Source: an uncultured delta proteobacterium
Lineage (GTDB): Bacteria > Myxococcota > UBA727 > VGSZ01
Assembly: GCA_963775425.1 (NCBI GenBank)
Contig: CAVZJB010000008.1
Location: 355,424-419,423, forward strand
DNA: 64,000 nucleotides
Direction: 5' to 3'
Shown here: positions 29,058-48,161 of the stretch, one piece after another
Layout: each line of letters opens with the position of its first letter
Numbering within the stretch: position 1 is the first letter of the stretch
Notes under the pieces: generated by a model
What the model saw: the letters and a program-made list of their open reading frames with translations, nothing else
Databases searched by the model: none
Told to the model about the DNA's origin: nothing
Made by a program: the position numbers and the translations under genes

Positions 29058-29102
29058 GGCCAGCGAGCCTACCAGACGCGCCGGCTGCGCTACGTTCGGG
29101 GC

Positions 29103-31523
<2,421 letters not shown>

Positions 31524-31576: not shown

Positions 31577-32422
31577 GTGCACGCGCATCGCCGATCGAAC
31601 GCTCCCTCCGGTCGCCGATCCCACGCGGCCGCTCCCTCCGGTCGCCGATCCCACGCGGCCGCTCCCTCCGGTCGCCGATCCCACGCGGCCGCTCCCTCCG
31701 GTCGCCGATCCCACGCGGCCGCTCCCTCCGGTCGCCGATCCCACGCGGCCGCTCCCTCCGGTCGCCGATTGGCCGTCGCGCTGCTCGGCGCGCTCGCGCT
31801 CGCCGTCCTCGTCGCCTTCCCCGCGCACGCCGCCGGCAGCAAGGCAAAGGCGCGCACGCTCTTCCATCAGGGACAGAGCGCCTACGAGGCCGGCGACTTC
31901 CAGGGCGCGCTCGACCTCTTCCAGGAGGCATACGCCACCGTCCCCGCGCCCGCGCTCTACTTCAACATCGCGCAGTGCTACCGGAAGCTCGGCGATCACG
32001 CGCACGCCGTCGAAGCCCTCGAGAAGTACCGCAAGCTCCAAAAGAGGATCCCCGCGTCCATCCGCAAGGAGCTCGAAGCGCAGCTCGCCGAAGAAAAGGC
32101 GCTCCTCGCCTCGCCCCCACCCGAGGCGGCGCCGCCCCCACCTGCCGCGCCGGATCCGCCGCCACCGCCACCGGCGCCGCCGCCGGCAGCGCCACCCGCC
32201 GCGTCCGTGCCGCCGCCGCCCGCTCCCGACGAGGCGCGCCCCGCCGCGGCCGTCGACGACGACGCGGCGCCCCTCTGGCAGAACCCGTTCGTCATCGGGG
32301 CCGCCGTCGGTGTCACGGCGGCCGCCATCGCCGGCGGCGCCGCCGCGGTGCTCTACTACACGGCACCGGGACCGCCGGTCCCGTCGACGACGCTCGGCGC
32401 GATCGACCTGAGGGATAAATGA
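31577..32422 (+). CDS. TPR protein with Pro-rich linker and C-terminal TM
   Basis: ARTLFHQGQSAYEAGDF, LYFNIAQCYR; start uncertain. Confidence 0.8.
   Translation: MHAHRRSNAPSGRRSHAAAPSGRRSHAAAPSGRRSHAAAPSGRRSHAAAPSGRRSHAAAPSGRRLAVALLGALALAVLVAFPAHAAGSKAKARTLFHQGQSAYEAGDFQGALDLFQEAYATVPAPALYFNIAQCYRKLGDHAHAVEALEKYRKLQKRIPASIRKELEAQLAEEKALLASPPPEAAPPPPAAPDPPPPPPAPPPAAPPAASVPPPPAPDEARPAAAVDDDAAPLWQNPFVIGAAVGVTAAAIAGGAAAVLYYTAPGPPVPSTTLGAIDLRDK
31601..31769 (+). repeat. Perfect 30-bp tandem repeat, about 5.6 copies
   Basis: GCTCCCTCCGGTCGCCGATCCCACGCGGCC repeated with no spacers. Confidence 0.95.
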
Positions 32423-34962
32423 GCGCCTCCCGCAGCAGGACGTGCGCGCTCCTCGCGGTCGCCGCGCTCGCGTGCGGTTGCCGCGACCCGCAGGCCGTCA
32501 TCATCGTCGGCGCCACCCTCGACCCGTCGCTCGGCATCGACCAGCTCGCGTTCACGCTCTCGAGCGGAGACACCAGCATCGAGGCCACGGCACCCGATGC
32601 GCCCGGCGAGGCGTTCGCAGACCGCGAGCAGACCGCGGCGTTCCTCCTCCCGCCGGCGCTCGTCGACGTCGACGTCGCCGTCGCCGTCGAAGGCAGCGCG
32701 GACGGCGGCGCCGGACGCGAGGTGCGCGCCCGCGGTGAAAACAGCATCCGCACCATCCCCGACACCACCGTGAAGGTCTTCGTCAAGCTCGCCTCCGTCC
32801 CCTTCTGCGGCGACGGTGTCCTCGACGACGGCGAGGCCTGCGACGACGGTGGCATCGCCGATGACGACGGCTGCTCCTCCGTCTGCGAGATCGAGCGCGG
32901 CTTCGTGTGCAGCGGCGCCCCCTCCCTGTGCGTGTCCGCGTGCGGCGACGGCGAGGTCGCCACCGGCGCCGAGGAGTGCGACGACGGCGGCGGCGACAGC
33001 GGCGACGGCTGCTCCGCGGCGTGCACCGTCGAGATCGGCTACGCCTGCGACGGCTCGCCCTCCGTGTGCGCGCCGGTGTGCGGCGACGGCCTCCTCGTCG
33101 GCGGCGAGGCGTGTGACGACGCGGACGTCGGCGACGGCGACGGCTGCTCGTCGACCTGCGCGGTCGAAGCCGGTTTCACGTGCAGCGGCGCGCCGTCGGC
33201 GTGCACCGCCGTCTGCGGCGACGGGCTCGTGCGCGGCGCCGAGGACTGCGACGACGTCGTTGGCGCGCCCGTCGACGGCGACGGTTGCTCTTCGACGTGC
33301 ACCCTCGAGACCGGTTACGCGTGCACCGGAGAGCCGTCCACCTGCGCGCCGGTGTGCGGCGACGGCGTCGTCGTCGCCGGCGTCGAGGGCTGCGACGATA
33401 GCGGCACCGCCGACGGTGACGGCTGCTCTTCGACGTGCACCCTCGAGCTCGGCTTCACGTGCGCGGGCGAGCCCACGGTGTGCGCGCCCGTGTGCGGCGA
33501 CGGCCTCGTGCGCGGCGGGGAGCAGTGCGACGACGTGGTGGGCACGCCGACGGACGGCGACGGTTGTTCGTCGACGTGCACCTTCGAAGAAGGCTTTTCG
33601 TGCGCGGGCGAGCCCACGGTGTGCGCGCCCGTGTGCGGCGACGGCCTCGTGCGCGGCGGGGAGCAGTGCGACGACGTCGTGGGCACGCCGACAGACGGCG
33701 ACGGCTGCTCGGCGGTGTGCGCCCGCGAGAGCGGCTTCGACTGCACGGGCGAGCCCAGCGTCTGCAGCACGGTGTGCGGCGACGGCCTCGTGCGCGGCGC
33801 GGAGGAGTGCGACGACGGCGCGGGCAACGGCAACGGCGCGGACCAGTGCCGCTCGGGCACGTGCACGCTGCCGTTCTGCGGCGACGCCATCACCGACACC
33901 GGCGAGCAGTGCGACGACGGCAACGCGGCCAACGACGACGCTTGCCGCACCGACTGCCGCACGCCGACGTGCGGCGACGGCTTCCTCGACCAGGGGGAGG
34001 CGTGCGACGACGGCAACATCGCGCCGGGGGACGGCTGCTCCGACACGTGCACCGTCGAGGCGACGTTCTCGTGTCTCGGGTCGCCGAGCGTGTGTGTGGC
34101 CACGGCCAACGTGCACGTCATCGGCGCGGGCGGGGAGTTCACCGTGATCGGAGACGCGGTGGCGTCGTCGTCGGTGGTGAGCGGCGACACGCTGTTCATC
34201 CTGAGCGAGTCGTTCAACGAAAACGTCGCCATCTCCACCAAGGACCTCACGTTGGTGGCCGACGCCGGCGCGGTCTTGTTCTCCGACGCCGACGGCAACG
34301 ACCTCGAGGCGTTGAACGTGAGCGGCGGCCGGACGGTGTCCGTGCAGGGCCTTTCCATTCGTCAGACCTCGCCCTCGAGCTCGAGCTCGGCAGTGACGGT
34401 GTCCGGCGCCGGCACGAGCCTGACGGTGCGGGGCTGCACGCTGGGGCCCTCGGGGCGCATCGGCGTCGACGCGGCGTCGGGGACGACGGTGACGCTCGAG
34501 CGGACCCTGGTGCAGGGCAACAGCGGAGGCGGCCTGGTGCTCGCGGGCGACTACACCGTCGACAACACGGTGGTCACCGGGAACGGGACCTCCGCGTCCG
34601 CGGTGGGCGGCGCGTCGCTCGCGGCGAGCGGCGTGTTCCGCTTCGACACGGTGGCGGGCAACACGTCGGCGTCGACGTCGCCGGCGGGCGTGGTCTGCGC
34701 GTCGGCGACGGCGCTGGTGTCATCGGTGGTGTTCGGCAACGCCGGCGCCGCCACCGAGGTCTCGGCCGCGTGCGACGGCTCGACGAGCAGCGTCGGCGTC
34801 GATCCCCTCTTCGACACCGACGGCTTCCACCTCTTGCCCGCGTCCCCCGTCGTCGACCAGGCGCCCGTCGCCGGCTGCCCCGCCCTCGACTTCGACGGCG
34901 AAGCCCGCCCCATCGGCACGCTCTGCGATCTCGGCGCCGACGAGCGCCCCCGCGGCCCCTGA
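32419..34962 (+). CDS. Myxococcal Cys-rich repeat (DUF4215-like) lipoprotein with C-terminal beta-helix
   Basis: Many CGDG...E.CDDG....DGCS..C repeats; pectin-lyase-like tail ending CDLGADE. Confidence 0.9.
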   Translation: MSASRSRTCALLAVAALACGCRDPQAVIIVGATLDPSLGIDQLAFTLSSGDTSIEATAPDAPGEAFADREQTAAFLLPPALVDVDVAVAVEGSADGGAGREVRARGENSIRTIPDTTVKVFVKLASVPFCGDGVLDDGEACDDGGIADDDGCSSVCEIERGFVCSGAPSLCVSACGDGEVATGAEECDDGGGDSGDGCSAACTVEIGYACDGSPSVCAPVCGDGLLVGGEACDDADVGDGDGCSSTCAVEAGFTCSGAPSACTAVCGDGLVRGAEDCDDVVGAPVDGDGCSSTCTLETGYACTGEPSTCAPVCGDGVVVAGVEGCDDSGTADGDGCSSTCTLELGFTCAGEPTVCAPVCGDGLVRGGEQCDDVVGTPTDGDGCSSTCTFEEGFSCAGEPTVCAPVCGDGLVRGGEQCDDVVGTPTDGDGCSAVCARESGFDCTGEPSVCSTVCGDGLVRGAEECDDGAGNGNGADQCRSGTCTLPFCGDAITDTGEQCDDGNAANDDACRTDCRTPTCGDGFLDQGEACDDGNIAPGDGCSDTCTVEATFSCLGSPSVCVATANVHVIGAGGEFTVIGDAVASSSVVSGDTLFILSESFNENVAISTKDLTLVADAGAVLFSDADGNDLEALNVSGGRTVSVQGLSIRQTSPSSSSSAVTVSGAGTSLTVRGCTLGPSGRIGVDAASGTTVTLERTLVQGNSGGGLVLAGDYTVDNTVVTGNGTSASAVGGASLAASGVFRFDTVAGNTSASTSPAGVVCASATALVSSVVFGNAGAATEVSAACDGSTSSVGVDPLFDTDGFHLLPASPVVDQAPVAGCPALDFDGEARPIGTLCDLGADERPRGP

Positions 34963-34996: not shown

Positions 34997-35419
34997 TCAA
35001 CGCGCGAGCGACCACAAGCGGCGCAGCGCCCGCCGCCACCGCGGTGGGGTCGGCGTCGGCCCGCGCACGGGCCCGCCGTCGACGGAGACGACGAGGCCGA
35101 CGACCTCCTGCGGGGCGAACCAGCCGTCGGGGCTCGGGCACGCGTCACCCTTGGTGAGCACGCGCCCGGCGGCGTCGATGCCCACCACCCGGTGCACCAT
35201 GAGGGAGACACGCGCATTGGTGACCGCAACGACCTCGCCAAGCCGAGGCGGTCTCGCGAGCGGCGCCAAGGTCAGGGTGGCGCCGTTGCGGATGGCGGCC
35301 TGCATGGACCCGCCGCGCGCGATGATCGTCTGCCCGTTTCCCCGCCGCAGGACCTCGATGACGAGGTCGAGACGGGCCATCTCCAGGTTGACGGCGCGCG
35401 CGCGTGACGCGGGCCTCAT
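34997..35419 (-). CDS. S24/S26 family peptidase (SipW-like Ser-His dyad), putative RiPP leader peptidase
   Basis: GGSM, VHRVV, TKGD motifs; no N-terminal TM; ATGA-coupled to the methyltransferase. Confidence 0.82.
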   Translation of the reverse strand: MRPASRARAVNLEMARLDLVIEVLRRGNGQTIIARGGSMQAAIRNGATLTLAPLARPPRLGEVVAVTNARVSLMVHRVVGIDAAGRVLTKGDACPSPDGWFAPQEVVGLVVSVDGGPVRGPTPTPPRWRRALRRLWSLAR

Positions 35420-36546
35420 GAGGCACGCTCCGCCGAAGCGATCATGCGGAGGACATCTTGTTCAGCGTCGCCGTCGTCGAGATAGCGGTCGGGATACGCG
35501 CTGCGAAGCCGACGCGCCATCGTCGGCACGTCCCCGGCGTCTCCACCGAGCGCCGCCGCCCATCGCGCCAAAGCCGCCGGCGCGGAGCCCTTTCCCGGAA
35601 CGACGATGTCGAGCTGTCGCAGCCAATCGTCGCGATCACCGACGAGCGACTTCATCGCGTTGCCTTCGCTCCGTTCGGCCCCGCTGCGAGCCGACCACTT
35701 CCAGGTCCCGCGATCCGTGAGCAGGCGCGTGCGTACCTCGACGTGGACGTCGTCACCGGGCGAGACGGACAACGGTTGCGCGAGGGGAAAGACGAGGTGC
35801 GCCCAGTGCGTGGAGGCGGCCGCCGGCGAGGACGACAGGCGGACTCCCTCGACGAGATCGGATTCGAACCAGCCGACCAGCGCGTTGACGCGAGCCGCTC
35901 TGGTGGCGCGCGAGACGCCGCTTACCATCGCCGGCGGCGGTCCATCGACGTCGAATCGCGCGGAGCAGGACGAGCCTGCGATGGCATCACCTGGGACCCG
36001 AGCGAGAGAGACGCGTGAGAGCAGGCGATCGGCGAGCCCGTTCATGGTGACGCCGAGCTGGCCGCGGATCATCCCGACTTCCCGATCGAGCGCGGGCAGC
36101 TCGGCGACAGCGACATGGGTCTCGACGGAGCCCGGGATGACGCGACAGCTCTGCGCACAATGCTTGCGCACGGTGCCGAGGAGGCCGCGGTAGTCCTCGT
36201 CGATGCCGAAGCTGCCGATCATCTCGCTCACGAGGACGTTCGGGGCCAGCGGGAGCTTGATGTCCCTGGCGTCGCCGCGGATGACCTCGATGACGCTGTC
36301 GAGGCCGTTGTCCCGCGCGGCCTCCCTCACGATCTCGACCATGGGGCCGCGCTCCAGCGCGTAGACGCGCCGCGCGCCGGCCTTGGCGCAGAGCAGGGCG
36401 AGGATGCCGCTCCCGGAGCCGACATCGACCACGACGTCGCCCGGTTTCACGCCTTGCTCGATCGCCGCGGCGAACGCCGACATTCGCACGCGGTCGACGA
36501 GCATCATCGCGTGGTTGGCGACGTCGTCGTATCCAAAGACACCCAC
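35416..36546 (-). CDS. PRMT-like SAM-dependent methyltransferase
   Basis: HAMMLVDRVR, VVDVGSGSGIL, double-E loop SEMIGSFGIDE, THW loop. Confidence 0.85.
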   Translation of the reverse strand: MGVFGYDDVANHAMMLVDRVRMSAFAAAIEQGVKPGDVVVDVGSGSGILALLCAKAGARRVYALERGPMVEIVREAARDNGLDSVIEVIRGDARDIKLPLAPNVLVSEMIGSFGIDEDYRGLLGTVRKHCAQSCRVIPGSVETHVAVAELPALDREVGMIRGQLGVTMNGLADRLLSRVSLARVPGDAIAGSSCSARFDVDGPPPAMVSGVSRATRAARVNALVGWFESDLVEGVRLSSSPAAASTHWAHLVFPLAQPLSVSPGDDVHVEVRTRLLTDRGTWKWSARSGAERSEGNAMKSLVGDRDDWLRQLDIVVPGKGSAPAALARWAAALGGDAGDVPTMARRLRSAYPDRYLDDGDAEQDVLRMIASAERAS

Positions 36547-36570
36547 GATCTACCTCGGTCTGCGCCCGGA

Positions 36571-37779
36571 CTAGTCGAACATCGCGAGGACGTTGCCCGC
36601 GGTGCCTTCCGCCTCGGGCAGGGTCGTGTCGCCGACGATGCTCAGCGGACGGCCGCCGCGACCGATCTTGGCGTTCGTACGTTCGGCGCGCTCGGCGAGG
36701 CGGACCAGCGCTTCAGCGCTCGTCTGCGACGCCGTGTTGCACGCCCGGAAGTCGCCGTGCTCGACCTGCCCGTACGCCATGCATGGGTGGCAAGCGGACC
36801 TGACGCTGCACGACGGGCACGACGTCATCTTCTCGAAGGTCATGCCGCGCATCTCGTGAAGGACGGCGTTGCGCTCCCAGATGTCCCGCAGCGCGTTGTT
36901 GCGGACGTTGCCCACGGCGGTAGGGAAGAACCCGCACGGGAGCACGTCGCCGGACGCCGCGACCGCGAGCGTGGAGCTCCCCGCGCCGCACATCGCCGAC
37001 GAGCCGTGCAGGAAGTCCGCGCCGTGGCAGATGGTGTCCGGTGTGACCTCGCGAAACCCCGGGTAGAGGTCGCGCCGCGCGAACACCTTGTCGGCGAGCG
37101 TCTTGGCATCGAGCGCGTACTTCAGCGTCGAGCGATCGTTGGACATCCGCGGGCGCACGTTCGGGTCGAGCTGGAACGCGACGCCGAGCTCATGGGCGAG
37201 CCGCACGATGTCGTCGATGCGGTCGACGCTGAACGTCGTCAGCACGCACTTGAGGGCGGCCTTCACCCCGTGCTCGGCGAGCATGCGCAGCGCGTCGGTG
37301 CTGCGCTTCCACGAGCCGGGGATCCGCGTGAACGCGTCGTGGTCGGCCGCGACATCCGAGTAGACCGAGATGTCGACCTGCGCCACGCCGAGCTCCTTCA
37401 AACGAAGGATCTTCTCGCGATTGAGCAGCGTGCCGCTGGTGAACAGGGTGGTGTGGAACCGGAGTCTCTTGGCGACGGCGAGGATCTCGAAGATGTCGCG
37501 CCGCAGGAAGATCTCGCCGCCCGTGAGGGTGAGCTGGAGGCATCCGAGCGCGGCGAGGTCGGTGAGAACACCCTCGACCTCCGAGAGCGACATCATCTCG
37601 TCGGTGGCGTGCGTGCTCTCGTCCTCGTAGCAGTGCTCGCACTTCAGGTTGCACGCGTTCACCAGATAGACCTGCGCGTGGAACGGGATTGCCCGTTCCC
37701 TGGCGCGCTCGCGCAGCTCGAGGAAGCGCGCCGGCGTCCGATCGAACATCTGCCCGAGGATCGGCAGCGCCTTGCTCAC
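36571..37779 (-). CDS. Radical SAM/SPASM peptide maturase
   Basis: CNLKCEHC, TGGE, SPASM CGAG...GDVLPC...CPSC...CHPC...C. Confidence 0.93.
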   Translation of the reverse strand: MSKALPILGQMFDRTPARFLELRERARERAIPFHAQVYLVNACNLKCEHCYEDESTHATDEMMSLSEVEGVLTDLAALGCLQLTLTGGEIFLRRDIFEILAVAKRLRFHTTLFTSGTLLNREKILRLKELGVAQVDISVYSDVAADHDAFTRIPGSWKRSTDALRMLAEHGVKAALKCVLTTFSVDRIDDIVRLAHELGVAFQLDPNVRPRMSNDRSTLKYALDAKTLADKVFARRDLYPGFREVTPDTICHGADFLHGSSAMCGAGSSTLAVAASGDVLPCGFFPTAVGNVRNNALRDIWERNAVLHEMRGMTFEKMTSCPSCSVRSACHPCMAYGQVEHGDFRACNTASQTSAEALVRLAERAERTNAKIGRGGRPLSIVGDTTLPEAEGTAGNVLAMFD

Positions 37780-38609
37780 GCCGCCTTCCGGGACGCTGCG
37801 AGGTGACCCTCGATCTCGTCGATGATCGTTGCGAGAGGGGTGTCGACGTGGCGCGCGAGGGAGAAGACCGGCGTGGTCTGGACCGCGCGCTGCGCCCAGG
37901 CGAGCGCCGCCCGGCCCTCCGCCGGCGTGCGCTCGAAACAGCACAGGTGGCGCAGCAGCTCCCCGGCCGCCCGCGCACGATCTTCGCGCACGCTGAGGGC
38001 GGTGCGCGGCGGTCGGTCCGCGGACAGCAGGACGAGGGCCCGAACGGCGTGGTGGGTGGGACGCGCCCGCCGCGTGGCGAGCCCTGAAAACGGCGAGCCC
38101 CACACCGCGAGGCCGCCCTGTGTCGGCGTCACGATGCTCTGATCGTCCGACAAGTACACGTCGTCCGGTGTGCCCTCGACGAGCGTGGTCTTCCCGGCGC
38201 CCGAGAGGCCGCAGAAGACGTAGCCGCCGGCGCCGAACGCCGCTGACGCCGCGTGCAGGAGGGCGCCCCCCGCGCGCAGGAGGATGCTGGCGCAGGCGGC
38301 CCGCAGGAAGGACTCGAACAGGGGGAAGCCACCGTCGCCCTGGTCGAGGCTGCCGGTGTACTCGGCCCTGCGCGTTCGGAGGTCGAGCGTGGCCGTGAAC
38401 GCCCCGGCGCGCGTCAGGTGGAGCGTGTCCCCGTCGACGCGGGTGTGGATCTCGGCGAGCGCTCCAACGTCCGCCGGCGGCGTCCGGCGGCCGACGACGG
38501 CGACCTCGAGGTCAGGCGGGCGGCGCGCGTCCTCGCGCTCGCAGCACCAGTCGACGGGAGCGTCGACCGACGTTGCGATGCGCAGAGGGCCGACGCGCCA
38601 GAGCGTCAA
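37776..38609 (-). CDS. HprK-related P-loop kinase (ScmC/lasso-kinase-like)
   Basis: LLHAAS, GLSGAGKTT, LSDD, GSPF; TTG start overlaps precursor TGA. Confidence 0.82.
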   Translation of the reverse strand: MTLWRVGPLRIATSVDAPVDWCCEREDARRPPDLEVAVVGRRTPPADVGALAEIHTRVDGDTLHLTRAGAFTATLDLRTRRAEYTGSLDQGDGGFPLFESFLRAACASILLRAGGALLHAASAAFGAGGYVFCGLSGAGKTTLVEGTPDDVYLSDDQSIVTPTQGGLAVWGSPFSGLATRRARPTHHAVRALVLLSADRPPRTALSVREDRARAAGELLRHLCCFERTPAEGRAALAWAQRAVQTTPVFSLARHVDTPLATIIDEIEGHLAASRKAA

Positions 38610-38782
38610 GACGCACCCAGCGTCGTGCAGCTCGCCGCTCCGTTCTTCGGCTGCGGCGTGCGGCCACCCTGCGTTCCGTTGCACCCGAGCGCCAGGCGCT
38701 CGTAGGTCTCGGAGCTCACGATCGCGGGCGGCTTGTAGGGGCTCTTCTTCTTCTGCTGCTGCGGCATCCGCACCTCGCTCAT
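38606..38782 (-). CDS. Putative RiPP precursor peptide (58 aa)
   Basis: MSEVRMPQQQKKKSPYKPPAIVSSETYERLALGCNGTQGGRTPQPKNGAASCTTLGAS; YxxPxI RRE-binding motif; starts 3 nt after upstream stop, stop overlaps kinase start. Confidence 0.85.
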   Translation of the reverse strand: MSEVRMPQQQKKKSPYKPPAIVSSETYERLALGCNGTQGGRTPQPKNGAASCTTLGAS

Positions 38783-38785
38783 GGT

Positions 38786-41700
38786 TCAGAAGCGTACGAT
38801 GATCGAGCCCGGCCGGGTGGTCGGCTCCAGGATCAAATCGGGCTCGGGCGAGCTGCCGATCAGGTTGGCGGCGCTCACGAAGACGGCGTCCGAGCCGGTC
38901 ACCGTGATGGCGTAGGTCGTGTCCGCGGTCTTGGCGGCGATGGGGTTGGCGCCGAAGGCGATGGACGTGGCGGTCTTGCCGCCCTGGACGAGGTCGGCGC
39001 GGGCGTCCCCGTTCAGGCTCGGCAGCACGAGGGACGTGCCGACGAGGAGCACGTTGCCGCCGCCGAAGGTGGTCTCGCCGCTCCACGTCGCGCCCGTGTT
39101 CTCCACCACGGTGAGGCCGTCCTGCGAGAAGTAGACCGCGTCGATGTCGCCGTCGCCGTCGACGTCACCGCTCGACAGATCGAAGCCCGGCGTGCGGGAC
39201 ACCGACTTGGTGATGGCGACGAAGTCGTTGCCCGTCGTGCCGTTGAGGTCGAGGGTGGCCGGCCACGTGTCCTGGCCGCGGACGACGAACAGCGACGGCA
39301 CGCTGCCCGTGCACGAGATCATGATGTCGTCGCGTGTGTCGCCGTTGGACCCGACGCCGGCGATGCCGGCGCCGAAGCCCGCGGAGCCTGTCGCGTCGCT
39401 GTTGGAGATGACGGTGCTGGCCACGTCGTCGATGAGGCCGCTCGTGGGCACGGCCCCTGTGTTGAGGAACACGTAGGCCTTGGCGAGCAGCGGGGCGGTG
39501 AAGCCCCAATCCGGGGCGCCGTCGCCGTCGACGTCTCCGAGCGTCTGCGCGTTGTAGCCGGCGAGGCCGAAGGTCGGCGCCTCGAGCACCGCGGCGGGCG
39601 TGGCGTCGGAGGCGATGCCGGTGCTGCTGCCCGGGTAGATGAAGAGGAACTCCTGATTGAAGTTGCTGTCGTACCCGACGACGATGACGTCGTCGAACGC
39701 GTCGCCGTCGATGGACTTGACGACGTTGACCGCCCAGCCCATCTCGAGCGGCGTGCACGTGCCCGCGGCGCACGGGAACGACGCCGGCGGGGTGACGACG
39801 GTCCGCTGCAGGTCGTTCTCCGTGGCGCCGCCGAGGATGACCTCGAAGGCCCCCGCCTGGCCGGCGAACTGGTTCGGCGCGCCGACCACGATGTCGTCGA
39901 GGTTGTCGCCGTTGATGTCGCCGCGCGAGCGCGACAGCGCCTGCGCCCAACCGTTCACGCCGGCCGGCGGCGCGAGCGTGACGCTGTTGGTGGCGACGAC
40001 GACCTGCGTGGTGGCCAGGGCCGAGCGGTTGCCGACGTCGTCGGTGGCGCGCAGCGCGATGAACCACGTGTTGTCGAACGCGAGCGGCGTCGTCGACGTA
40101 TCGACGAGCTCACCGGTGCCGCCATTGGCGGTCTGCGCGACGTTCGCCGCCGCGATCTGGCCGGCGCCGCCGAAGTTGGCGTCGGTGATGGCCGTCTTGG
40201 AGAAGAAGATCTGGACCGCGGTGGGGCCGGCGGCGTTGTCGAAATTGTCATCGCCGGGCTGTGTGTAGGTGACGCCGACGTTGCCGGCGCGCGCATCGAG
40301 CACCGCGACGTTGAGCGTGGGCGAGCCCGGCGACGTGATGTCCACGGTGGCGATGAACGAGTCCGGCGTCGTGGGTGTGTTGCCCTCGGAGTCGGTGCAC
40401 GTGGCCGTCCAGGTCTCCGCGTCGCCTTGCGCGGCGTCGCTCACGGCGACCGCAAGGCTCCCGCTGCCCGAGGCGTCGACGTTCGTCGAGCCGATCACCG
40501 TGGCGCCGTCGAGGACCTGCAACACGCCGTTTTCGCACTGCGTGACGTCGACGTTGACCTGCACCTGCAGGCCGGCGACGCCCTGCTGGAGGTCGCTGGC
40601 CTTGTTGAACGTCGCCGTCGCGCCCGCGGGGTTGGTGAAAGCGGTGGTCGGGCGCCCGAGGTCGACGCGGAAGCTCTCCTCCCCGCTCGTGCCCGTCTTG
40701 GGACCGTCCTGCACCGTGACCTCGAACGTGCCGGTGGCGCCGTCGTCGAGCGTGAACGCGGCGCACGACAGGCCGCCGGCGCCGTCCACGGTGCACGTGG
40801 TGGCGGTGGCGCCGTTGATGAGCACTTGCGCCGTGGCGGTCACCGGAGCGTCGGTGGTGCCGGTGACGACGATCTGCGCACCCGTGGCGCCGGCGTCGGT
40901 GTCTTCGGCCACGCCGACGGAGCGGAAGCCGGCGCGCAGCGGCGGGTTGGTGATGGCCACGAAGAAGATGCCGGTGGCGACGGTGACGGTGACGGTGTTG
41001 GACACGCCTACGTTGCCGGCGGCGTCGGTGGCGGCGGCGGTGACGTGATGGTCGCCTTCGGCCAGGTAGGTGACGCGGCACTGGACGGCGACGCCGTCGC
41101 CGGCCGAGACGCAGGGGAAGCCCGCGGTGTTGATGGCGCCGCCCTGAAGGTCGCTCGTGATGGTGATGGGCAACCCGGCGGCGAGTCCGGTTGGCGTGAC
41201 GGTGACGTTCACCTGGACGCCGTTGGTGGCGTTGCCGTCGAGGTCATCCGCGCTGCCGGCGTCGTTCGCCACGAGCACGAGAACCGGCGGCGCGGTGTCG
41301 ACGGAGACGGCGACCGGGTCGCTCGTCGCCGGGTTTCCTGCCGGATCGGAGACCGTGGCGGTGATGGCGCGGTTGCCGTCGGGGACGGTGACGCGCACCG
41401 TGACGGAGCCGTTGTTGAGCGTGCCCGGAGCACCGCTGGGCGTGCCGTCGATCGCGATCTGCACGCTCTGGCCGTCGCCGGCGTCGCTCGTCACGATGAC
41501 GTCCGTCTGCAGCCCGTTCGAAGCGTCGCCGTCCGCGTCGTCGGCCAGGTTCAACGTGCCGGCTGGTGGCGCCTCGACGACGACGACGGGCGGGACGGTG
41601 TCGACGGTGACGGTGAGGTGCGTGGTGTTCGGGTCGAGCGCATTTCCGCCGGGATCCGAGCCCGTGACGACGAGCTCGTCGTCTCCCTGGGTGAGGGGGA

Positions 41701-43696
41701 ACGTGGTGAAGGTCGCGGCCCCTCCGCTCACGACGGCGGTCTTGGTGCCGCCCGGACCCGTCAGGCGAACCGTGCGGCCGTCCATGTCGCTGCTGAACGT
41801 CACCGTGACGTCGCTCGCGACGTTCCCGGTTGCGGCGCCGCCGTTGTCGGCGGCGTTGAGGACGTTGTCGCTCCCCGCGTTGTCCACGACGATGGATTCG
41901 ACGGTGGGAATGCTCGAGTCGGTGTTGAACGTGATGGGACCACTGGTGTGCACGTTCCCCGCCGCGTCCGCCGCGGTCGCGGACAGCGTGTGGGTTCCGT
42001 CGTCGAGGGTGACGGTGGCGGTGCACGACGTTCCGGCGACGGCACCGGTCTGCTCCACGCCGTCCACCGTGACCGTGCAGGACGTCGTCCCCGCCGAGAC
42101 CACGAGGACGATGCGGGCCTGGAATCCGGCCGTGCTCGGATCCGCGTCGTTGCTCGCGTTGAGGCTCAACCCCGCGTTGGGGGAGAAGAACACGACGTCG
42201 GGGTCGACCGTGTCGATGACGATGTCACGCGTGATGTGCGGGCCGTCGACGTCGGTGGCGCTGACCGCGAAGACCTCGAGGTGCCAGGTGGCGCGGTCGG
42301 AGAAGTCGATGTTGAGGCTCTCGAGGAAGGGCGCGGACAGGTCGACCGCGGTCTCCTCGAGTGCGAGGTTGCCCGCCGGATCAGTGAGTCTGACGGTGCC
42401 GGTCAAGCCGGTGACGTCGCCCGAAGGCGTGAACGTCGCCGCGATCTCGAGCACATCGGCGGTGGAGAGGTCGGGGTCGTCCGCCGCGAGGTATGCGCCG
42501 TCGTTGCCGCTGCCGGTGGGGTCGAGCGTGATGCTGAACGTCGGCGCGCTCGACTGGACCGTGAAAAGAACCACGGTGTCCTCGCCGTCGACGGTGAGCG
42601 TGAGGGTGCAATCGGGCTGAACGAGTCCGTCGATTTGCGCGGTGATGTGCACTCTTCCGTTGGTCGGTGTGAGGGTGATTTCCGGATTCGCGCCCCCGGA
42701 GGTCCCCGTGATTTCCTGGTTGCCGGCCGTGGGATTGGCGTCGTCCTGGCAGAGCGCGTCGAACGAGACCGCGCTTGCCTCGTCGGCGGTGGCGTCGAGC
42801 GCGATGCTGATGCCGTCGAACGGATTGCTGTTGAGGTCGTCGGCGTCGGTGTAGGGCGGCGCGGTGCGCGGGCTGACGACATCCACCTGGTTGGGGAGGT
42901 TCACGTGGATAAGGATCGTGGGGTCGATGGTGACGATGTCAGGAGCGAGGCCGAGCGCATTGGTGGGGTCGAGGAGCTGGCCGCCGAGCGTGGCATCCTC
43001 GCCCTTGGTGAGCGGCACCGTGGCGGTGCCCACGGCGTTGGCGAGCTGCGCCGTACCGCTGGTGGTGACGTTCGTGGTGTCGGACGTGGCGTCGACGCGC
43101 ACCTGCGCGGTGTTGAGGAACGCGATGATGGTGGGGTCCGTGCTCGTGGTGGAGCAGGCCACGCCGACGTCGAAGGGCGTCTCCGTGGCGGTGTCGCCGT
43201 CACCCGGGGACGTGATGTGGCACTCGACGCTGAATTCCTGGCCCTCGACGCAGTCGTCGCGGATGGTCGCGGTGTCGGTGAGGTCCTGGGTCGAGTCGCC
43301 GTTGCTCGCGACCGCCGTCAGCGTGTTCTCGGCGCCGGGCGCCTCGCCGCCGACGAGGGTGATGCGGACCGTGGCCTCGCCGTCCGTGAAGGTGCCGCTG
43401 CCGGTGTTGCCATCGGTGCCGCGGGCGTCGCTGACGTCCACGGAGCCGTAGCCGCTGCCGTCGTCGTTGATGAGGTCCACCTGGAGGTCGATCTGCACGC
43501 CGGGCGTATTGGGGTCGACGTCGTCGGCGCAGTGCACGACGTCGGGGAGGCCCGCGAACGCGATGGAGGGCTGCTCCGGCTCGCCTTCCGCGGGCTTGCA
43601 GGAGTCGTCGCAGCAGCAGGAGTCACCGCACGCGGCGGCGACCGACAGACCCAGAATCAACCCGCCCAGGCGCACAATGGAATTCGTGAAAAACAT
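38786..43696 (-). CDS. Large surface lipoprotein with tandem Ig-like domains and C-terminal FG-GAP/integrin-like beta-propeller
   Basis: Lipobox VAAAC, repeated ATDAAGN/DTVPP Ig motifs, [23 protein letters not shown]. Confidence 0.85.
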   Translation of the reverse strand: MFFTNSIVRLGGLILGLSVAAACGDSCCCDDSCKPAEGEPEQPSIAFAGLPDVVHCADDVDPNTPGVQIDLQVDLINDDGSGYGSVDVSDARGTDGNTGSGTFTDGEATVRITLVGGEAPGAENTLTAVASNGDSTQDLTDTATIRDDCVEGQEFSVECHITSPGDGDTATETPFDVGVACSTTSTDPTIIAFLNTAQVRVDATSDTTNVTTSGTAQLANAVGTATVPLTKGEDATLGGQLLDPTNALGLAPDIVTIDPTILIHVNLPNQVDVVSPRTAPPYTDADDLNSNPFDGISIALDATADEASAVSFDALCQDDANPTAGNQEITGTSGGANPEITLTPTNGRVHITAQIDGLVQPDCTLTLTVDGEDTVVLFTVQSSAPTFSITLDPTGSGNDGAYLAADDPDLSTADVLEIAATFTPSGDVTGLTGTVRLTDPAGNLALEETAVDLSAPFLESLNIDFSDRATWHLEVFAVSATDVDGPHITRDIVIDTVDPDVVFFSPNAGLSLNASNDADPSTAGFQARIVLVVSAGTTSCTVTVDGVEQTGAVAGTSCTATVTLDDGTHTLSATAADAAGNVHTSGPITFNTDSSIPTVESIVVDNAGSDNVLNAADNGGAATGNVASDVTVTFSSDMDGRTVRLTGPGGTKTAVVSGGAATFTTFPLTQGDDELVVTGSDPGGNALDPNTTHLTVTVDTVPPVVVVEAPPAGTLNLADDADGDASNGLQTDVIVTSDAGDGQSVQIAIDGTPSGAPGTLNNGSVTVRVTVPDGNRAITATVSDPAGNPATSDPVAVSVDTAPPVLVLVANDAGSADDLDGNATNGVQVNVTVTPTGLAAGLPITITSDLQGGAINTAGFPCVSAGDGVAVQCRVTYLAEGDHHVTAAATDAAGNVGVSNTVTVTVATGIFFVAITNPPLRAGFRSVGVAEDTDAGATGAQIVVTGTTDAPVTATAQVLINGATATTCTVDGAGGLSCAAFTLDDGATGTFEVTVQDGPKTGTSGEESFRVDLGRPTTAFTNPAGATATFNKASDLQQGVAGLQVQVNVDVTQCENGVLQVLDGATVIGSTNVDASGSGSLAVAVSDAAQGDAETWTATCTDSEGNTPTTPDSFIATVDITSPGSPTLNVAVLDARAGNVGVTYTQPGDDNFDNAAGPTAVQIFFSKTAITDANFGGAGQIAAANVAQTANGGTGELVDTSTTPLAFDNTWFIALRATDDVGNRSALATTQVVVATNSVTLAPPAGVNGWAQALSRSRGDINGDNLDDIVVGAPNQFAGQAGAFEVILGGATENDLQRTVVTPPASFPCAAGTCTPLEMGWAVNVVKSIDGDAFDDVIVVGYDSNFNQEFLFIYPGSSTGIASDATPAAVLEAPTFGLAGYNAQTLGDVDGDGAPDWGFTAPLLAKAYVFLNTGAVPTSGLIDDVASTVISNSDATGSAGFGAGIAGVGSNGDTRDDIMISCTGSVPSLFVVRGQDTWPATLDLNGTTGNDFVAITKSVSRTPGFDLSSGDVDGDGDIDAVYFSQDGLTVVENTGATWSGETTFGGGNVLLVGTSLVLPSLNGDARADLVQGGKTATSIAFGANPIAAKTADTTYAITVTGSDAVFVSAANLIGSSPEPDLILEPTTRPGSIIVRF

Positions 43697-43785
43697 GGAC
43701 CCCTCCCGAAAACGACCCACGGATGAGTTGACACATGATCGGGGGCTCCTCAACCCCGCCATGCCTCGCACGACAGGCCGCCGGC

Positions 43786-44094
43786 TCACGACGGGGACTC
43801 GGAGGTCAAAAGGAGGTTCCGTGCCAGGGCGTCGTCCACGAAAACAAGCGCGTCGGCACGCAAGGTCTCTTCGTCGACCTCGAACTCCTCGAGCATCTCG
43901 ACGACGATGGCGTCGAGCGTGCGGGTGCCGTCGGCGCGGTCCCAGATGAAGGTGGCTGTGTCGTTCAGCGTGTGCAGCGTCGAGTCTTCAGGCGTGATCA
44001 CGATTGCTTCCCCGTCGATGGTCCGCGCCGGGGTATCGGGATTCTGACGTAGATACAGGGTCCACATGCGGGCGCGGGGGTTGGTGTCGTTCAT
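43786..44094 (-). CDS. PqqD family RiPP recognition element (RRE)
   Basis: IDGEAIVI, LNDTATFIWDRADGTRT...EEFEVD. Confidence 0.92.
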   Translation of the reverse strand: MNDTNPRARMWTLYLRQNPDTPARTIDGEAIVITPEDSTLHTLNDTATFIWDRADGTRTLDAIVVEMLEEFEVDEETLRADALVFVDDALARNLLLTSESPS

Positions 44095-44106: not shown

Positions 44107-45273
44107 TCAATTCTGAAGGAGGGCGTCGACCTCCCCCTGGATGACCGCGGGGTCGGTGTAGCCGAGGTGCATGTGCCGCACCGTGCCGGCCTTGTCGACG
44201 ATGTAGGAGGTGGGCAGCGTGGTCAGCCCGAGCCGCTCGCCGAAGAAGCGGTCGTCCACGACGCAGTCGAAGCTCGGCCGGATCTGTGCCAAGGCCTTGC
44301 CCGCGGCCTTCGGGTCGTGGGGCTCGCGGTTGACCCCGAGGACGGCGAGGCCGCGGCCGCGGTAGCGCTCCGCCAGCGCCGACAGCTCCGGCATCGAGCG
44401 GCGGCAGGGGCCGCACCAGGACGCCCAGAAGTCGAGGATCAGAACCTGGCCACGGAAGCTCGCCAGCTTCACCGCCTCCTTCTGGATGCCGTACTCGTCG
44501 AGCTTGTGCAGCCGCGTGTCGGGGAGCGGGTCGCCGACGAGGACGGGGCGGATGCGGTCGGCGTACTTGATCGACGACGTCACCGCCCCGGCCGACAGGG
44601 CCGCCAGGCTCGCGAGGAGCACGGCCCCGCCCGCGCGCAGCCGGGCCCGCGGCGGGGCGGGCGGGGCGCCGCCGGGGCGCCGCAGCCAGGGCACGAGGGT
44701 CAGCCCGAGGGCCAGGGGGACGCCGTAGGAGACCACGCACTTCACCACGAAGCGCAGCGCGCTCACCTGCCGCCCGACGACGACGGCCATGGAGTCGACG
44801 GCCTCGTTGGGCATCCACCAGCGCCCCGCGCCGAACCCCGCGAACGCGCCGCCGACGGCGATGAGCGCGACGAGCGGCACCGTCAGGTACGCCGCCGCCA
44901 CCGCCGCGCGCCACGGGGATACGCGCCCCTTCGTGAGCAGGCGCGCGAGCGCCGCGACGACGGCGCAGGTGGCGAGCAAGAGCGCGGCGTGCGTCTTCAG
45001 GTCGTCGAAGAGCGTGTCGCGGATGCGCCGGAGGATGACCTCACCGCCCGCGCCCACGAGGAAGGACAGCCGCGCGAGCACCTTGACGTCGACGACGACC
45101 ACGGCCGCGACGAGCAGCGCCACCGGCGGCCACCACGGCGCGCCCCGCGCGGCGACGGCCCGCAGCGTGCGCACCGGCGCGGCGATCATGCCGCCGAGGG
45201 CGTCGAGCGCGCCCACGGGCCCCGCGGCCGGGGCGTCGACCTCGCCGGTCGACCGCGCGCCGGCGCCGCTCAC
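44107..45273 (-). CDS. Membrane-anchored TlpA-like thiol-disulfide redoxin with Yip1-like TM N-terminus
   Basis: LDFWASWCGPC, LPTSYIVD; several TM helices. Confidence 0.82.
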   Translation of the reverse strand: MSGAGARSTGEVDAPAAGPVGALDALGGMIAAPVRTLRAVAARGAPWWPPVALLVAAVVVVDVKVLARLSFLVGAGGEVILRRIRDTLFDDLKTHAALLLATCAVVAALARLLTKGRVSPWRAAVAAAYLTVPLVALIAVGGAFAGFGAGRWWMPNEAVDSMAVVVGRQVSALRFVVKCVVSYGVPLALGLTLVPWLRRPGGAPPAPPRARLRAGGAVLLASLAALSAGAVTSSIKYADRIRPVLVGDPLPDTRLHKLDEYGIQKEAVKLASFRGQVLILDFWASWCGPCRRSMPELSALAERYRGRGLAVLGVNREPHDPKAAGKALAQIRPSFDCVVDDRFFGERLGLTTLPTSYIVDKAGTVRHMHLGYTDPAVIQGEVDALLQN

Positions 45274-45788: not shown

Positions 45789-46576
45789 GACGGGTACCAC
45801 GGGTGCATGTGGTGCACCGGGCCGCGCCCGCGGCCGATGCCGGGCGCCGTGCGAATGGCCTCCTGCACGTACGCGTGCGCGCGCACCACGGCTTCGACGA
45901 GGGGGAGGCCGAGCGCGAGGCAGGCGCAGACGGCGGCCGAGAGCGCACAGCCCGTGCCGTGGGTGTGCATGGTGTCGATGCGCGGCGACACGAGCTCCTT
46001 GACGGCGTCGCCGTCGAAGAGGACGTCGACGGGATCGCCCTGAGCGTGGCCGCCCTTCACGAGCGCCGCCTTGGCGCCGAGCTGCACCAGCGCGCGCGCG
46101 GCCTGCTCCTGCTCGTCGACGTTGCGGACGAGGAAGCCGCAGAGCTTCTCCGCCTCGGCGAGGTTGGGCGTCACCAGCGTGGCGTGCGGGATGAGGCGCT
46201 CGCGCAGCACGCGCACGCCGTCGTCGTCGAGGAGGGTGGCGCCGGAGGAGCTCTGCATCACCGGATCCACCACGACCGGCACCGCGCACTTGATGAGCTC
46301 GACGGCGACGGCGTCGGCGACGGCGCCGCTCCCGAGCATGCCGGTCTTGATGGCGCGCACCGGGATGTCGTCGAGGACGGCGTCGATCTGGTCGGCGACC
46401 AGCGCCGGATCGAGGGCCGCCACCCGCCGGACGCCGAGGGTGTTCTGGGACGTGACCGCCGTGACGGCGGCGGTGCCATAGACCTGCAGCGCGGCGAAGG
46501 TCCGCAGGTCCGCCTGGATGCCGGCGCCGCCCGACGGATCGGAGCCTGCGACGGTGAGCGCGCATGGGAGCGTCAT
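45785..46576 (-). CDS. thiD: Hydroxymethylpyrimidine/phosphomethylpyrimidine kinase
   Basis: AGSDPSGGAGIQAD, KTGML, TPNLAEA, HGTGC. Confidence 0.95.
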   Translation of the reverse strand: MTLPCALTVAGSDPSGGAGIQADLRTFAALQVYGTAAVTAVTSQNTLGVRRVAALDPALVADQIDAVLDDIPVRAIKTGMLGSGAVADAVAVELIKCAVPVVVDPVMQSSSGATLLDDDGVRVLRERLIPHATLVTPNLAEAEKLCGFLVRNVDEQEQAARALVQLGAKAALVKGGHAQGDPVDVLFDGDAVKELVSPRIDTMHTHGTGCALSAAVCACLALGLPLVEAVVRAHAYVQEAIRTAPGIGRGRGPVHHMHPWYPS

Positions 46577-46643
46577 GACCCTCGTTGAGGTATCACGTTC
46601 AGCGATGCGCACCAGAGCGTCCCCGAGGGGAGCAGCGCACTCC

Positions 46644-48161
46644 GTGCGCGCCATCCCGGCGGGCGGGAAGCCATGGCTTCGCCGATGGCGTCCGCGCATC
46701 GCGGCGCGGCTGTTCCTCGCGGTGGGCCTTCCCACGGCGGTCGTCGTCGTCGCGCTCGGGGTGCTCGCGTGGCGCACCACGCGGCAGGCGGTGGAGGCGT
46801 CGTTGCAGCGGGAGCTGCAGGCGTCGGTGGCGGTGGCCGCGTCGACCATCCCCACGCTCGCCCTGCGCGTGCTGCTCCCCGAGGACGAGGCGACGTCGTC
46901 GTCGTACCGGCGCATGGTCGGGCGCCTCAGGGCCATCCAGCAGTCCACGGGCTCCGTGCGCGTGCTCGTCGTCGACGGCGACGAGAAGGTGCGCGCCTCG
47001 GCCGATCCCGCCCTGCACATCGGCGATCAAGCTCCGCGCGTGGCGCTCGACCGCGTGGAGCTCTCGCGCGCCGTCGGCGGCGACCCCGCCGTCAGCGTCC
47101 CCTTCACCGCCAAGGATGGCAAGCGCTACATGGCCGCCTACGCGCGCATCCCCGAGGACCGCGGCGGCCGCGACGACGTCGCCGAGGGGCCGCCGCTGGT
47201 CCTCGCCATGGAGGCGCCCGCCGCCGCGCTCGACGCCACCGACGCCGTCGCCCGCCAGATCGCCGGCCTCGTCGGGCTCGCGGTGCTGAGCGTCATCTCG
47301 CTCGCCCTCGTCGTGGCGCGCACCATCACCCGTCCGCTGCGCGGGCTCGCCGACGAGGCCGAGCGACTCGGGCGCGGCGATCTCTCGAGCGCGCTCGACC
47401 TCCCGCGCGGCGACGACGAGGTCGCCGGCCTCGGCCGCACGCTCGAGGCCATGCGCAAGGCGCTCGTCGACCGCGACGCCGAGCGCCAGATGATGCTCGC
47501 CGGCATCGCCCACGAGGTGCGCAACCCGCTCGGCGGCATGGAGCTGTTCTCGGGGCTCCTCGAGGAGGGCATCGCCGAGCTCCCCGCCGACGCCGCCCCC
47601 GCGCCCGAGGCGCGCGCCGAGCTGCTCGAGCAGGCGGGGCGCGTGCGCAAGGAGCTGCGCTACCTGACCGACGTCGTCAGCTCGTTCCTCGCGTTCGCGC
47701 GCGACACCCCGCTCACCAAGGAGCCCGTCGACGTCCCCGCGCTCCTCGACGACGTGGCCTCGCTGTGTCGCCGCGAGGGCGCCGCGGCGATCGTCGTCGA
47801 GGCGGCGGGCGCCGGCGCGGCCGAGCTCGATCGCGCGCGCATCAAGCAGGCGCTCTTGAACCTCGTCGACAACGCGCTCGCCGCCACCGGCGCCGGCGGC
47901 ACCGTCACCGTGCGCGCCCACCGTGTGCCCGGCGGCGGCGGCGGCGGGGGCGCCCTGGTGCTCGAGGTCGTCGACACAGGCAAGGGCATGGAGGCCGCCA
48001 CGCTCGAGCGCGTGTGGACGCCCTTCTTCACGACGAAGGAGAAGGGCTCCGGCCTCGGCCTGCCGCTCGTGCGGAAGCTCGCGCGCGACCACGGCGGCGA
48101 CGCGGCGGTGACGTCGTCACCGGGGGCCGGAACCACGGTGCGCATCACGCTGCCTGCTTGA
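46644..48161 (+). CDS. HAMP-domain sensor histidine kinase
   Basis: Two TMs, HAMP, AHEVRNPL, NLVDNA, DTGKG, GSGLGL; start approximate. Confidence 0.9.
   Translation: MRAIPAGGKPWLRRWRPRIAARLFLAVGLPTAVVVVALGVLAWRTTRQAVEASLQRELQASVAVAASTIPTLALRVLLPEDEATSSSYRRMVGRLRAIQQSTGSVRVLVVDGDEKVRASADPALHIGDQAPRVALDRVELSRAVGGDPAVSVPFTAKDGKRYMAAYARIPEDRGGRDDVAEGPPLVLAMEAPAAALDATDAVARQIAGLVGLAVLSVISLALVVARTITRPLRGLADEAERLGRGDLSSALDLPRGDDEVAGLGRTLEAMRKALVDRDAERQMMLAGIAHEVRNPLGGMELFSGLLEEGIAELPADAAPAPEARAELLEQAGRVRKELRYLTDVVSSFLAFARDTPLTKEPVDVPALLDDVASLCRREGAAAIVVEAAGAGAAELDRARIKQALLNLVDNALAATGAGGTVTVRAHRVPGGGGGGGALVLEVVDTGKGMEAATLERVWTPFFTTKEKGSGLGLPLVRKLARDHGGDAAVTSSPGAGTTVRITLPA

Follow-up and report, generated by a model that had tools for sequence, protein, structure and literature searches.

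In lasso peptide biosynthesis, the B1 protein recognises a YxxPxL motif in the leader of the precursor. The SynChlorMet and GeoRSP cassettes are curated in NCBIfam and, to our knowledge, uncharacterised, and we know of no giant lipoprotein, S26 peptidase or protein arginine methyltransferase (PRMT) in their descriptions. HPr-kinase homologues are described as phosphorylating the C-terminal Ser of lasso precursors (PMC8498205). In the qhp operon of quinohemoprotein amine dehydrogenase (QHNDH), QhpD, an enzyme of the radical S-adenosylmethionine (SAM) kind, is described as making Cys thioethers in the leader-bearing peptide QhpC and the protease QhpE as removing the leader, and the QhpC peptide then joins far larger proteins of the same operon as one subunit of their complex (PMC7876137). 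Here we describe an operon of seven genes in a 64-kb stretch of DNA (the window; about 72% G+C) from an uncultured Myxococcota genome labelled G000, an 8.26-Mb assembly of 18 contigs. The labels G and L below denote the other genomes and loci compared with it. The operon encodes a PqqD-family protein, a giant putative lipoprotein, a small precursor peptide, an HprK-like kinase, a radical SAM (rSAM)/SPASM enzyme, a PRMT-type methyltransferase homologue (MT) and an S26 peptidase homologue. We propose that it is probably one copy of a widespread and uncharacterised peptide-maturation cassette that depends on a RiPP recognition element (RRE; RiPP, ribosomally synthesised and post-translationally modified peptide) and is kin to the phosphorylated lasso pathways, with the PRMT added in this lineage and the giant lipoprotein as partner.

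A conserved precursor family and the spread of the cassette

The PqqD-family protein passes the Pfam model PF05402 (4.1e-18; 65.9 bits against a cut-off of 23.4), which marks it as a PqqD-like RRE, and it shares 33-75% identity with the PqqD genes of 8 other cassettes. Its best NCBIfam matches, ScmD, PqqD, GeoRSP PqqD and lasso PqqD, all stay under their cut-offs. The same holds for the whole operon, as no NCBIfam model reached its cut-off with any of the seven proteins.

The precursor of 58 residues matches no NCBIfam or Pfam model, and a word-indexed protein search with it returned only itself. A HMMER profile of the precursor, searched against 1.84 billion representatives, matched 623 representative clusters (50% identity) at E<=0.001. 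Seventeen precursors were read from the DNA of 13 genomes and compared in one 17-sequence and one 8-sequence alignment. They share the pattern (K/R)(K/R)xYxxPx(L/I/V)..S.E.FERLAL, followed by one residue and a Cys. Key residues of the window precursor are Tyr16, Pro19, Glu28, Leu32, Cys34, Arg41, Cys52 and Ser58. Pro19 and Leu32 are invariant and Tyr16, Glu28 and Cys34 nearly invariant among the 17 sequences, and both Cys34 and Cys52 are invariant in the 8-sequence alignment. The window leader reads KKKSPYKPPAI...YERLAL, in which Y16-K-P-P19-A-I21 agrees with the lasso-type YxxPxL motif, and the PqqD protein would bind the precursor through this leader. Across the 17 precursors the leader is conserved and the core varies in length from 10 to 34 aa. 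The window ORF (open reading frame) has an alternative start at Met6 (38767). The best 150 of the 623 clusters were examined, and all counts of family members given here and below refer to these: 149 members are 38-119 aa long (median 56), 148 of the 149 contain Y..P.hydrophobic, and 108 of the 150 match the strict pattern of leader and Cys.

The sequence-only reading of this DNA had proposed an operon of RiPP type and had named in advance a conserved small ORF in homologous loci as one of the points on which that proposal could fail. Such an ORF was found, in 17 precursors and 623 clusters, so the proposal is not refuted, and it is borne out by an RRE above the Pfam cut-off and by a precursor family that recurs beside the enzymes.

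Up to 401 genomes of the phylum were searched with the MT, the kinase and the precursor profile, and the matched loci were compared by tblastn. The arrangement is not a chance one, since it recurs in 14 other genomes (G001, G002, G012 as a 1.8-kb fragment, G013, G017, G056, G332, G137, G042, G014, G297, G077, G387 and G162). Its distribution is patchy, with the cassette in 3 of the 11 genomes of the window's own family. Wherever the PqqD gene was seen, the order opens with PqqD, the giant gene and one or more precursors, and the downstream content varies. Each cassette has one or two rSAM genes, which lie ahead of the kinase gene in G013; tblastn gave no kinase match in the G042 and G162 cassettes; and an S26 gene is visible in some of the loci only.

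Several observations on the precursor stand apart from these results. In G013, a second locus on the same contig, about 300 kb from the cassette and about 5 kb from the contig end, holds two tandem four-Cys precursors of this family (L171:9472-9832), around which tblastn found no cassette enzymes in 14.8 kb. The protein P0078 (738 aa) gave 10 separate matches to the precursor profile, each covering leader positions 11-25 only, and would represent a KRPY..P repeat. Neither the distant loci L134-L138 nor the G332 cassette (L133) yielded a precursor. The stretch LALGC was considered as a lipoprotein signal and rejected, because the leader is hydrophilic.

Kinase, S26 and radical SAM homologues

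By sequence, the kinase is only weakly related to known models: TIGR04355 gave 3.4e-3 and 16.5 bits (cut-off 200), PF07475 gave no match, and no NCBIfam HprK-related model was reached at cut-off. For comparison, the kinases of two lasso loci scored 36.3 bits (L032) and 28.0 bits (L029) against PF07475, the latter under the cut-off of 33.3. A plain sequence search of the PDB with the kinase gave nothing meaningful, and a profile search gave P-loop and PEPCK matches only. The predicted structure, however, confirmed the kinase as an HprK/PEPCK-fold P-loop kinase. Fold comparison (VIA-align) of the AlphaFold2 model (mean predicted local distance difference test, pLDDT, 90.3) ranked two PEPCK entries with Z scores of 13.9 and 13.3 and four HprK/P structures with Z scores of 9.5-10.1 over residues 113-277, and the first entries below the HprK/P structures scored 7.2 and 4.2. 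Residues His119, Gly134, Gly139, Lys140, Thr142 and Asp155 are invariant in 11 cassette kinases, with the Walker A motif GLSGAGKTT and the motif LSDD conserved.

We propose that this kinase phosphorylates the C-terminal residue Ser58, as the HPr-kinase homologues do on lasso precursors. A C-terminal Ser or Thr is present in 138 of the 149 family members (134 Ser and 4 Thr). The G162 cassette, with no kinase match and a precursor ending in Tyr, fits such a link. Two cassettes speak against it: G387 has the kinase though its precursor ends in QSV, and G042 has no kinase match though its precursor ends in Ser.

The S26 homologue is likewise weak by sequence (TIGR02228, 32.1 bits against a cut-off of 51.85). 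Its AlphaFold2 model (pLDDT 86.4) confirmed a SEC11-type predicted fold, consistent with a putative leader peptidase. The top Foldseek entries were SEC11A (1.7e-4), SEC11C, SipA and SpsB, followed by LexA and UmuD. A profile search of the PDB also gave SEC11A (1.4e-4), with the segments GGSM, HRV and KGD aligned to SEC11. S26 peptidases have a catalytic Ser with a His or Lys and a conserved Asp, and all 8 cassette S26 homologues compared have Ser38, His76, Arg77 and Asp92. No hydrophobic N-terminal segment or membrane anchor, as expected of a signal peptidase that acts on Sec signal peptides, was found in the 140-aa protein, whose model helix 12-25 reads as amphipathic. Type I signal peptidases follow a rule of small residues at positions -3 and -1. 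Before the first core Cys, all 108 strict-pattern members have A, V, S, I or T at position -3 and 90 of them have A, S or G at position -1, and every one of the 17 precursors read from DNA has Leu at position -2. Cleavage just before Cys34 therefore fits a SEC11-like peptidase, because the residues at -3 and -1 follow the signal-peptidase rule. This soluble SEC11-like enzyme would cut after Ala31-Leu32-Gly33, an AxA-type site, to leave a 25-residue core starting with Cys34. We infer all the chemical steps of the pathway; among them, family-wide sequence support is confined to the phosphorylation of Ser and the cleavage before Cys34.

The rSAM enzyme exceeds the Pfam cut-offs for both of its domains (Radical_SAM 6.1e-21, SPASM 3e-10) and shows the CxxxCxxC and Cys-rich SPASM motifs in its translation. 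Conservation of the N-terminus in G001 supports the GTG start. In three cassettes, two rSAM/SPASM paralogues stand in tandem (L013:2658-4984, L130:7262-9684 and L131:10899-13300), and the window enzyme clusters with the downstream paralogue of the two-rSAM cassettes (FastTree support 0.98). The retained type is the downstream one in G000 and G001 and the upstream one in G012, which suggests from sequence that the paralogues were lost independently in different cassettes.

This enzyme would cross-link the core, most likely through a thioether from Cys34 and/or Cys52. The thioether-forming SkfB is its best solved relative (4e-17, followed by PqqE at 2e-13), and Cys34 is the most conserved residue of the core. 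A number of observations weigh against the thioether. The best NCBIfam scores of the enzyme are about 138 bits against cut-offs of 400-500, and the cross-link type is a guess, because the enzyme is not near any characterised maturase. NirJ2, AhbD and GeoRSP are its highest-scoring families, ahead of the sactisynthases, none of whose models was reached at cut-off. The precursors have even numbers of Cys, exactly two in 103 and four in 25 family members (128 of 149), which would equally suit disulfides. In addition, a multi-pass membrane protein with a thioredoxin-like domain (AhpC-TSA 3.2e-17 and Redoxin 1.9e-16 in Pfam) is encoded 12 nt upstream of the PqqD gene in the window, and a 46%-identical homologue lies directly upstream of PqqD in G017 (L130:16741-17922). 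On this evidence the paired Cys might instead form one or more disulfides after export, with the rSAM enzyme making no Cys thioether and catalysing some other change, such as an oxidation, an epimerisation or a cross-link of the C-C or C-O type. We consider this possible but rather unlikely, in view of the SkfB relationship and the conservation of Cys34. The thioredoxin-like gene abuts the operon in those two loci and was not found upstream of PqqD in the remaining cassette loci. Pfam scans showed no exporter gene in or beside the window operon, which counts against disulfides formed after export and, at the same time, against our proposal of a matured peptide pathway.

The PRMT homologue and the giant lipoprotein

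PRMTs are marked by SAM motif I, a double-E loop, a THW loop and a C-terminal beta-barrel. By sequence the MT is a true PRMT homologue, for which arginine methylation itself is predicted. The 60 best of its 73 PDB matches are all PRMT-family proteins (PRMT6, 9e-24). In the alignment with PRMT6 (4y30), the double-E loop is matched by SEMIGSFGIDEDY and the THW loop by THW, and motif I, both loops and the beta-barrel domain align over MT residues 6-272. Among 22 full-length homologues, Gly43, Gly45, Gly47, Glu117 and Trp248 are invariant, and Glu108, Thr246 and His247 are at least 90% conserved. The MT also passes the Pfam model PRMT_C (PF22528; 32.3 bits, cut-off 27). It belongs to a long form of about 380 aa that is specific to Myxococcota, with a C-terminal extension of about 90 aa. 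An atlas look-up of the C-terminal 92 aa gave no score above 0.84, a single-protein locus search with the MT across genome contigs gave no close relative, and the MT is the sole PRMT-like gene detected in G000.

The MT gene is present in 4 of the 15 cassette genomes. It lies between the rSAM and S26 genes in G000, G001 and G002, which represent three genera, and after the rSAM gene in G012, from another family. Cassettes without it run directly from the rSAM or kinase gene to the S26 gene. It thus looks like a lineage-specific insertion into the operon, an accessory gene from a mostly stand-alone PRMT clade of Myxococcota. The sequence-only reading had made the PRMT a defining enzyme of the system; that view gives way to an accessory role, since most cassettes do without it.

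In the window's lineage, the inserted PRMT would act on Arg41, a residue between the two Cys, and methylate its guanidino group. The long-form PRMT cassettes have three readable precursors, all with an Arg between two Cys, 6-8 residues past the first Cys, and the G137 precursor, with a short PRMT-like gene nearby, also has an Arg between its two Cys. Behind the G137 cassette comes a gene whose translation reads as a multi-pass membrane protein, and after it this convergent short gene, whose product has double-E and THW motifs and is 26% identical to the MT (L169:12124-13041, L169:13050-13964). Against this assignment, Arg also occurs where no PRMT is linked, in 5 of 13 such precursors, and in 51 of the 108 strict-pattern cores. 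The link between Arg and PRMT (4 of 4 against 5 of 13, in related genomes) is therefore weak.

The PRMT might also be a protein-arginine methyltransferase of Myxococcota that acts on another substrate, such as cell proteins or the giant lipoprotein, and landed in the operon by chance. In a quick tree with Shimodaira-Hasegawa-like approximate likelihood ratio test (SH-aLRT) supports, the G000, G001 and G002 enzymes fall in a 17-row clade (support 96) that also holds a stand-alone gene of G009, a genome with no kinase or precursor match. The other members of known context in the enclosing 33-row clade (99) stand alone beside unrelated neighbours, and the C-terminal extension is common to stand-alone forms. 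These points, with the frequent Arg in cores that have no PRMT, favour a chance arrival and so tell against Arg41 as the target. We nevertheless regard a chance arrival as unlikely. Two core genes flank the MT gene within the operon, the rSAM gene 24 nt away and the other overlapping it by 4 nt, and its position is kept in three genera, with a further copy after the rSAM gene in a genome of another family. Moreover, PRMTs of a different clade are recruited to RiPP pathways.

This was seen among 61 PRMT-like loci with at least 200 aa coverage: lasso clusters account for 13 of them and the cassette for 1, and 1 accompanies a distant rSAM gene. The lasso-linked short PRMTs form their own 12-row clade (98), with 11 of the 12 members in lasso clusters, in hosts from Acidobacteriota, Planctomycetota, Chloroflexota and Myxococcota. 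Alongside PqqD, these loci encode an Asn-synthetase-like cyclase and a B2 protease, and in most cases an HPr kinase as well. Most of their candidate precursors contain Arg, and the leader is KRPYxxPxL. Since separate PRMT clades occur in the cassette and in lasso clusters, recruitment of PRMTs to RiPP pathways has happened more than once.

The Pfam matches of the giant protein are Ig-like Big_13 repeats (5e-14), a C-terminal FG-GAP region (1.1e-4) and PKD, and a hydrophobic stretch at its N-terminus runs into AAAC. In tblastn, 12 of the 14 other cassette loci gave homologues of 24-53% identity, or 13 of 15 genomes counting the window. The two loci without a match are the 1.8-kb contig of G012 and G387, where the contig ends 1.4 kb upstream of the precursor. 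The sequence-only reading had spoken of an embedded giant protein; the gene is no passenger but a conserved core member of the cassette, lying between the PqqD and precursor genes wherever PqqD was seen. We take this Ig/FG-GAP lipoprotein as a fixed partner of the cassette in Myxococcota and no bystander, one that most likely works with the finished peptide, for instance as receptor, carrier or complex partner.

The giant gene always directly follows the RRE gene, and distant PqqD-rSAM-kinase cassettes adjoin other very large secreted proteins, so the giant lipoprotein itself, and not the small ORF, could be taken as the substrate of the RRE and the enzymes. We judge this highly improbable. 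Three traits of the small ORF, which belongs to a family of 623 clusters, fit the RRE, the rSAM enzyme and the kinase: its leader of lasso type, its invariant Cys and its C-terminal Ser. Moreover, a six-frame pattern scan of 13 sources for the leader-like motif matched 8 small ORFs only and none of the giant proteins.

We favour the small ORF as the substrate, and its finished product would work together with the giant lipoprotein. By analogy with the gamma subunit of QHNDH, we tentatively suggest that the cassette makes no free antibiotic. It might instead make a dedicated peptide, cross-linked and phosphorylated at its C-terminus, for docking onto or maturing the giant integrin-like lipoprotein, a peptide that the PRMT would tune in this lineage, with Arg methylation as a recurrent RiPP tailoring; this picture is a doubtful one.

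Three further features of the giant proteins were noted. Those of the window (38786-38830) and of L013, L015, L130, L131 and L132 share the C-terminal ending (V/I)(V/I)R(F/Y)-stop. A short Cys-rich stretch right behind the putative lipobox Cys is common to the same proteins (window 43600-43696). In the distant cassettes of G103 and G071, the divergently encoded neighbours are secreted Peptidase_C25 proteins of 1000-1200 aa and not Ig/FG-GAP proteins (L135:4756-7881, L136:11979-15599).

Gene layout and comparison with known systems

The genes are listed in Table 1. The seven co-oriented minus-strand ORFs and their overlapping or near-abutting junctions were found as the sequence-only reading had placed them, and its enzyme family names also hold, through Pfam for PqqD, rSAM, SPASM and PRMT_C and through predicted folds for the kinase and the S26 homologue. 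The S26 and MT genes share ATGA (35416-35419), the kinase and rSAM genes GTGA (37776-37779) and the precursor and kinase genes TTGA (38606-38609), and the precursor ATG at 38782 starts 3 nt past the giant-gene stop at 38786. The PqqD/giant overlap (43786-43789) is true for the longest ORF only, from GTG 43789; from ATG 43696, which gives a signal-peptide-like N-terminus, the spacing to the PqqD gene is about 89 nt. The six long genes and the 58-aa ORF are regarded as coding, because their G+C content at third codon positions (0.78-0.93 and 0.90) is well above that at second positions (0.43-0.58 and 0.58). A promoter and terminator scan gave fewer sites than shuffled sequence. The flanking Ser/Thr kinase, DUF4215 and HAMP genes are not conserved beside other cassettes.

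Table 1. Genes of the operon and its surroundings, with examples of lasso-linked PRMT genes (positions refer to the window unless a locus label is given)
Feature	Position	Strand	Basis and remarks
PqqD-family RRE, 102 aa	43786..44094	minus	Pfam PF05402
Giant putative lipoprotein, ~1636 aa	38786..43696 (longest ORF to 43789)	minus	Big_13, FG-GAP, PKD
Precursor, 58 aa	38606..38782	minus	conserved family; leader residues 1-33 at 38684-38782; predicted core Cys34-Ser58 at 38609-38683
HprK/PEPCK-fold P-loop kinase, 277 aa, TTG start	37776..38609	minus	predicted fold
Radical SAM/SPASM maturase, 402 aa, GTG start	36571..37779	minus	Pfam
PRMT-type methyltransferase homologue (MT), 376 aa	35416..36546	minus	PDB alignment, PRMT_C
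Small soluble S26 (SEC11/archaeal-type) peptidase homologue, 140 aa	34997..35419	minus	predicted fold
Possible accessory membrane protein, C-terminal thioredoxin-like domain (WCGPC)	44107..44979 (start uncertain, longest ORF to 45948)	minus	Pfam
Flanking Ser/Thr protein kinase	28176-31523		
Flanking DUF4215 (Myxococcus Cys-rich repeat) and beta-helix protein	32419-34962		convergent on the S26 gene
Flanking HAMP histidine kinase	46518-48161		
Lasso-linked PRMT genes, examples	L029:10001-10807, L032:10001-10867, L040:7285-8160, L042:10001-10909, L045:7627-8475, L185:4993-5928		

In the literature searched, which did not cover subscription journals, no paper was found on the cassette or on the presence of PRMTs in RiPP pathways; the one paper that mentions both lasso peptides and an arginine methyltransferase concerns a free-arginine methyltransferase of an unrelated pathway. 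As far as this literature goes, the enzyme combination matches no characterised RiPP class, as had been proposed from the sequence: no published match was found and no NCBIfam model was reached at cut-off. The cassette would define a new RiPP class in which rSAM chemistry is joined to a leader, RRE and kinase logic of the lasso type. Its obligatory giant surface partner in Myxococcota points to cell-surface biology rather than to simple antibiosis. Eukaryotic signalling has PRMTs among its hallmarks, and the bacterial clades in the cassette and in lasso clusters would offer testable substrates for bacterial arginine methylation, as well as possible enzymes to methylate peptide arginines. If the tentative picture drawn by analogy with QHNDH is true, methylation of arginine would recur as a tailoring step of RiPPs, one of which no description was found in the literature searched.

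Compared with the eukaryotic type I PRMTs (PRMT6, PRMT1 and PRMT3), the MT aligns over motif I, the double-E and THW loops and the beta-barrel, but it is bacterial, has an extra C-terminal stretch of about 90 aa and is encoded in a peptide-maturation operon. The sactipeptide and ranthipeptide maturases SkfB and AlbA are similar in placing an rSAM/SPASM enzyme beside an RRE on a Cys-bearing core. They differ in that the window enzyme scores only 82.5 bits against the AlbA model (cut-off 850) and 70.4 against the SkfB model (cut-off 300), and in that its RRE is a separate protein.

SynChlorMet (ScmC/D/E/F, TIGR04248-04251) and GeoRSP (TIGR04302/04303) have the HprK-related and PqqD-like proteins in common with the cassette, as well as one or two rSAM/SPASM enzymes, and their models rank among the best NCBIfam matches of the operon. 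However, the operon proteins lie far under the cut-offs of those models: ScmD 35.8 bits against 100, ScmE 83.7 and ScmF 80.2 against 400, the GeoRSP rSAM model 136.3 against 400 and GeoRSP PqqD 34.3 against 100; the kinase gave no match to the ScmC model at E<=0.01. The likeness to the qhp operon is one of logic only, with no sequence relationship seen. In contrast to qhp, the cassette has no ABC exporter, haem subunit or flavoprotein, and the partner is a surface lipoprotein of 1600 aa and not an enzyme subunit.

A further likeness concerns the phosphorylated lasso pathways of the paeninodin type, which pair a B1 RRE with an HPr-kinase homologue. Membership in the lasso class itself was rejected: tblastn with one B2 transglutaminase-like protease and two cyclases from lasso loci, run over 374 kb made up of the window and 20 cassette loci, gave neither an Asn-synthetase-like lasso cyclase nor a B2 protease at E<=1e-3. 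Unlike the lasso pathways, the cassette has an rSAM/SPASM enzyme and an S26 homologue instead, a predicted core that begins with Cys and a giant lipoprotein gene inside the operon. Both nevertheless have a stand-alone PqqD-type RRE, a (K/R)(K/R)PYxxPx(L/I) leader and an HprK-fold kinase, and in both the precursor ends in Ser; in these respects the cassette looks like a relative of the phosphorylated lasso-peptide pathways.

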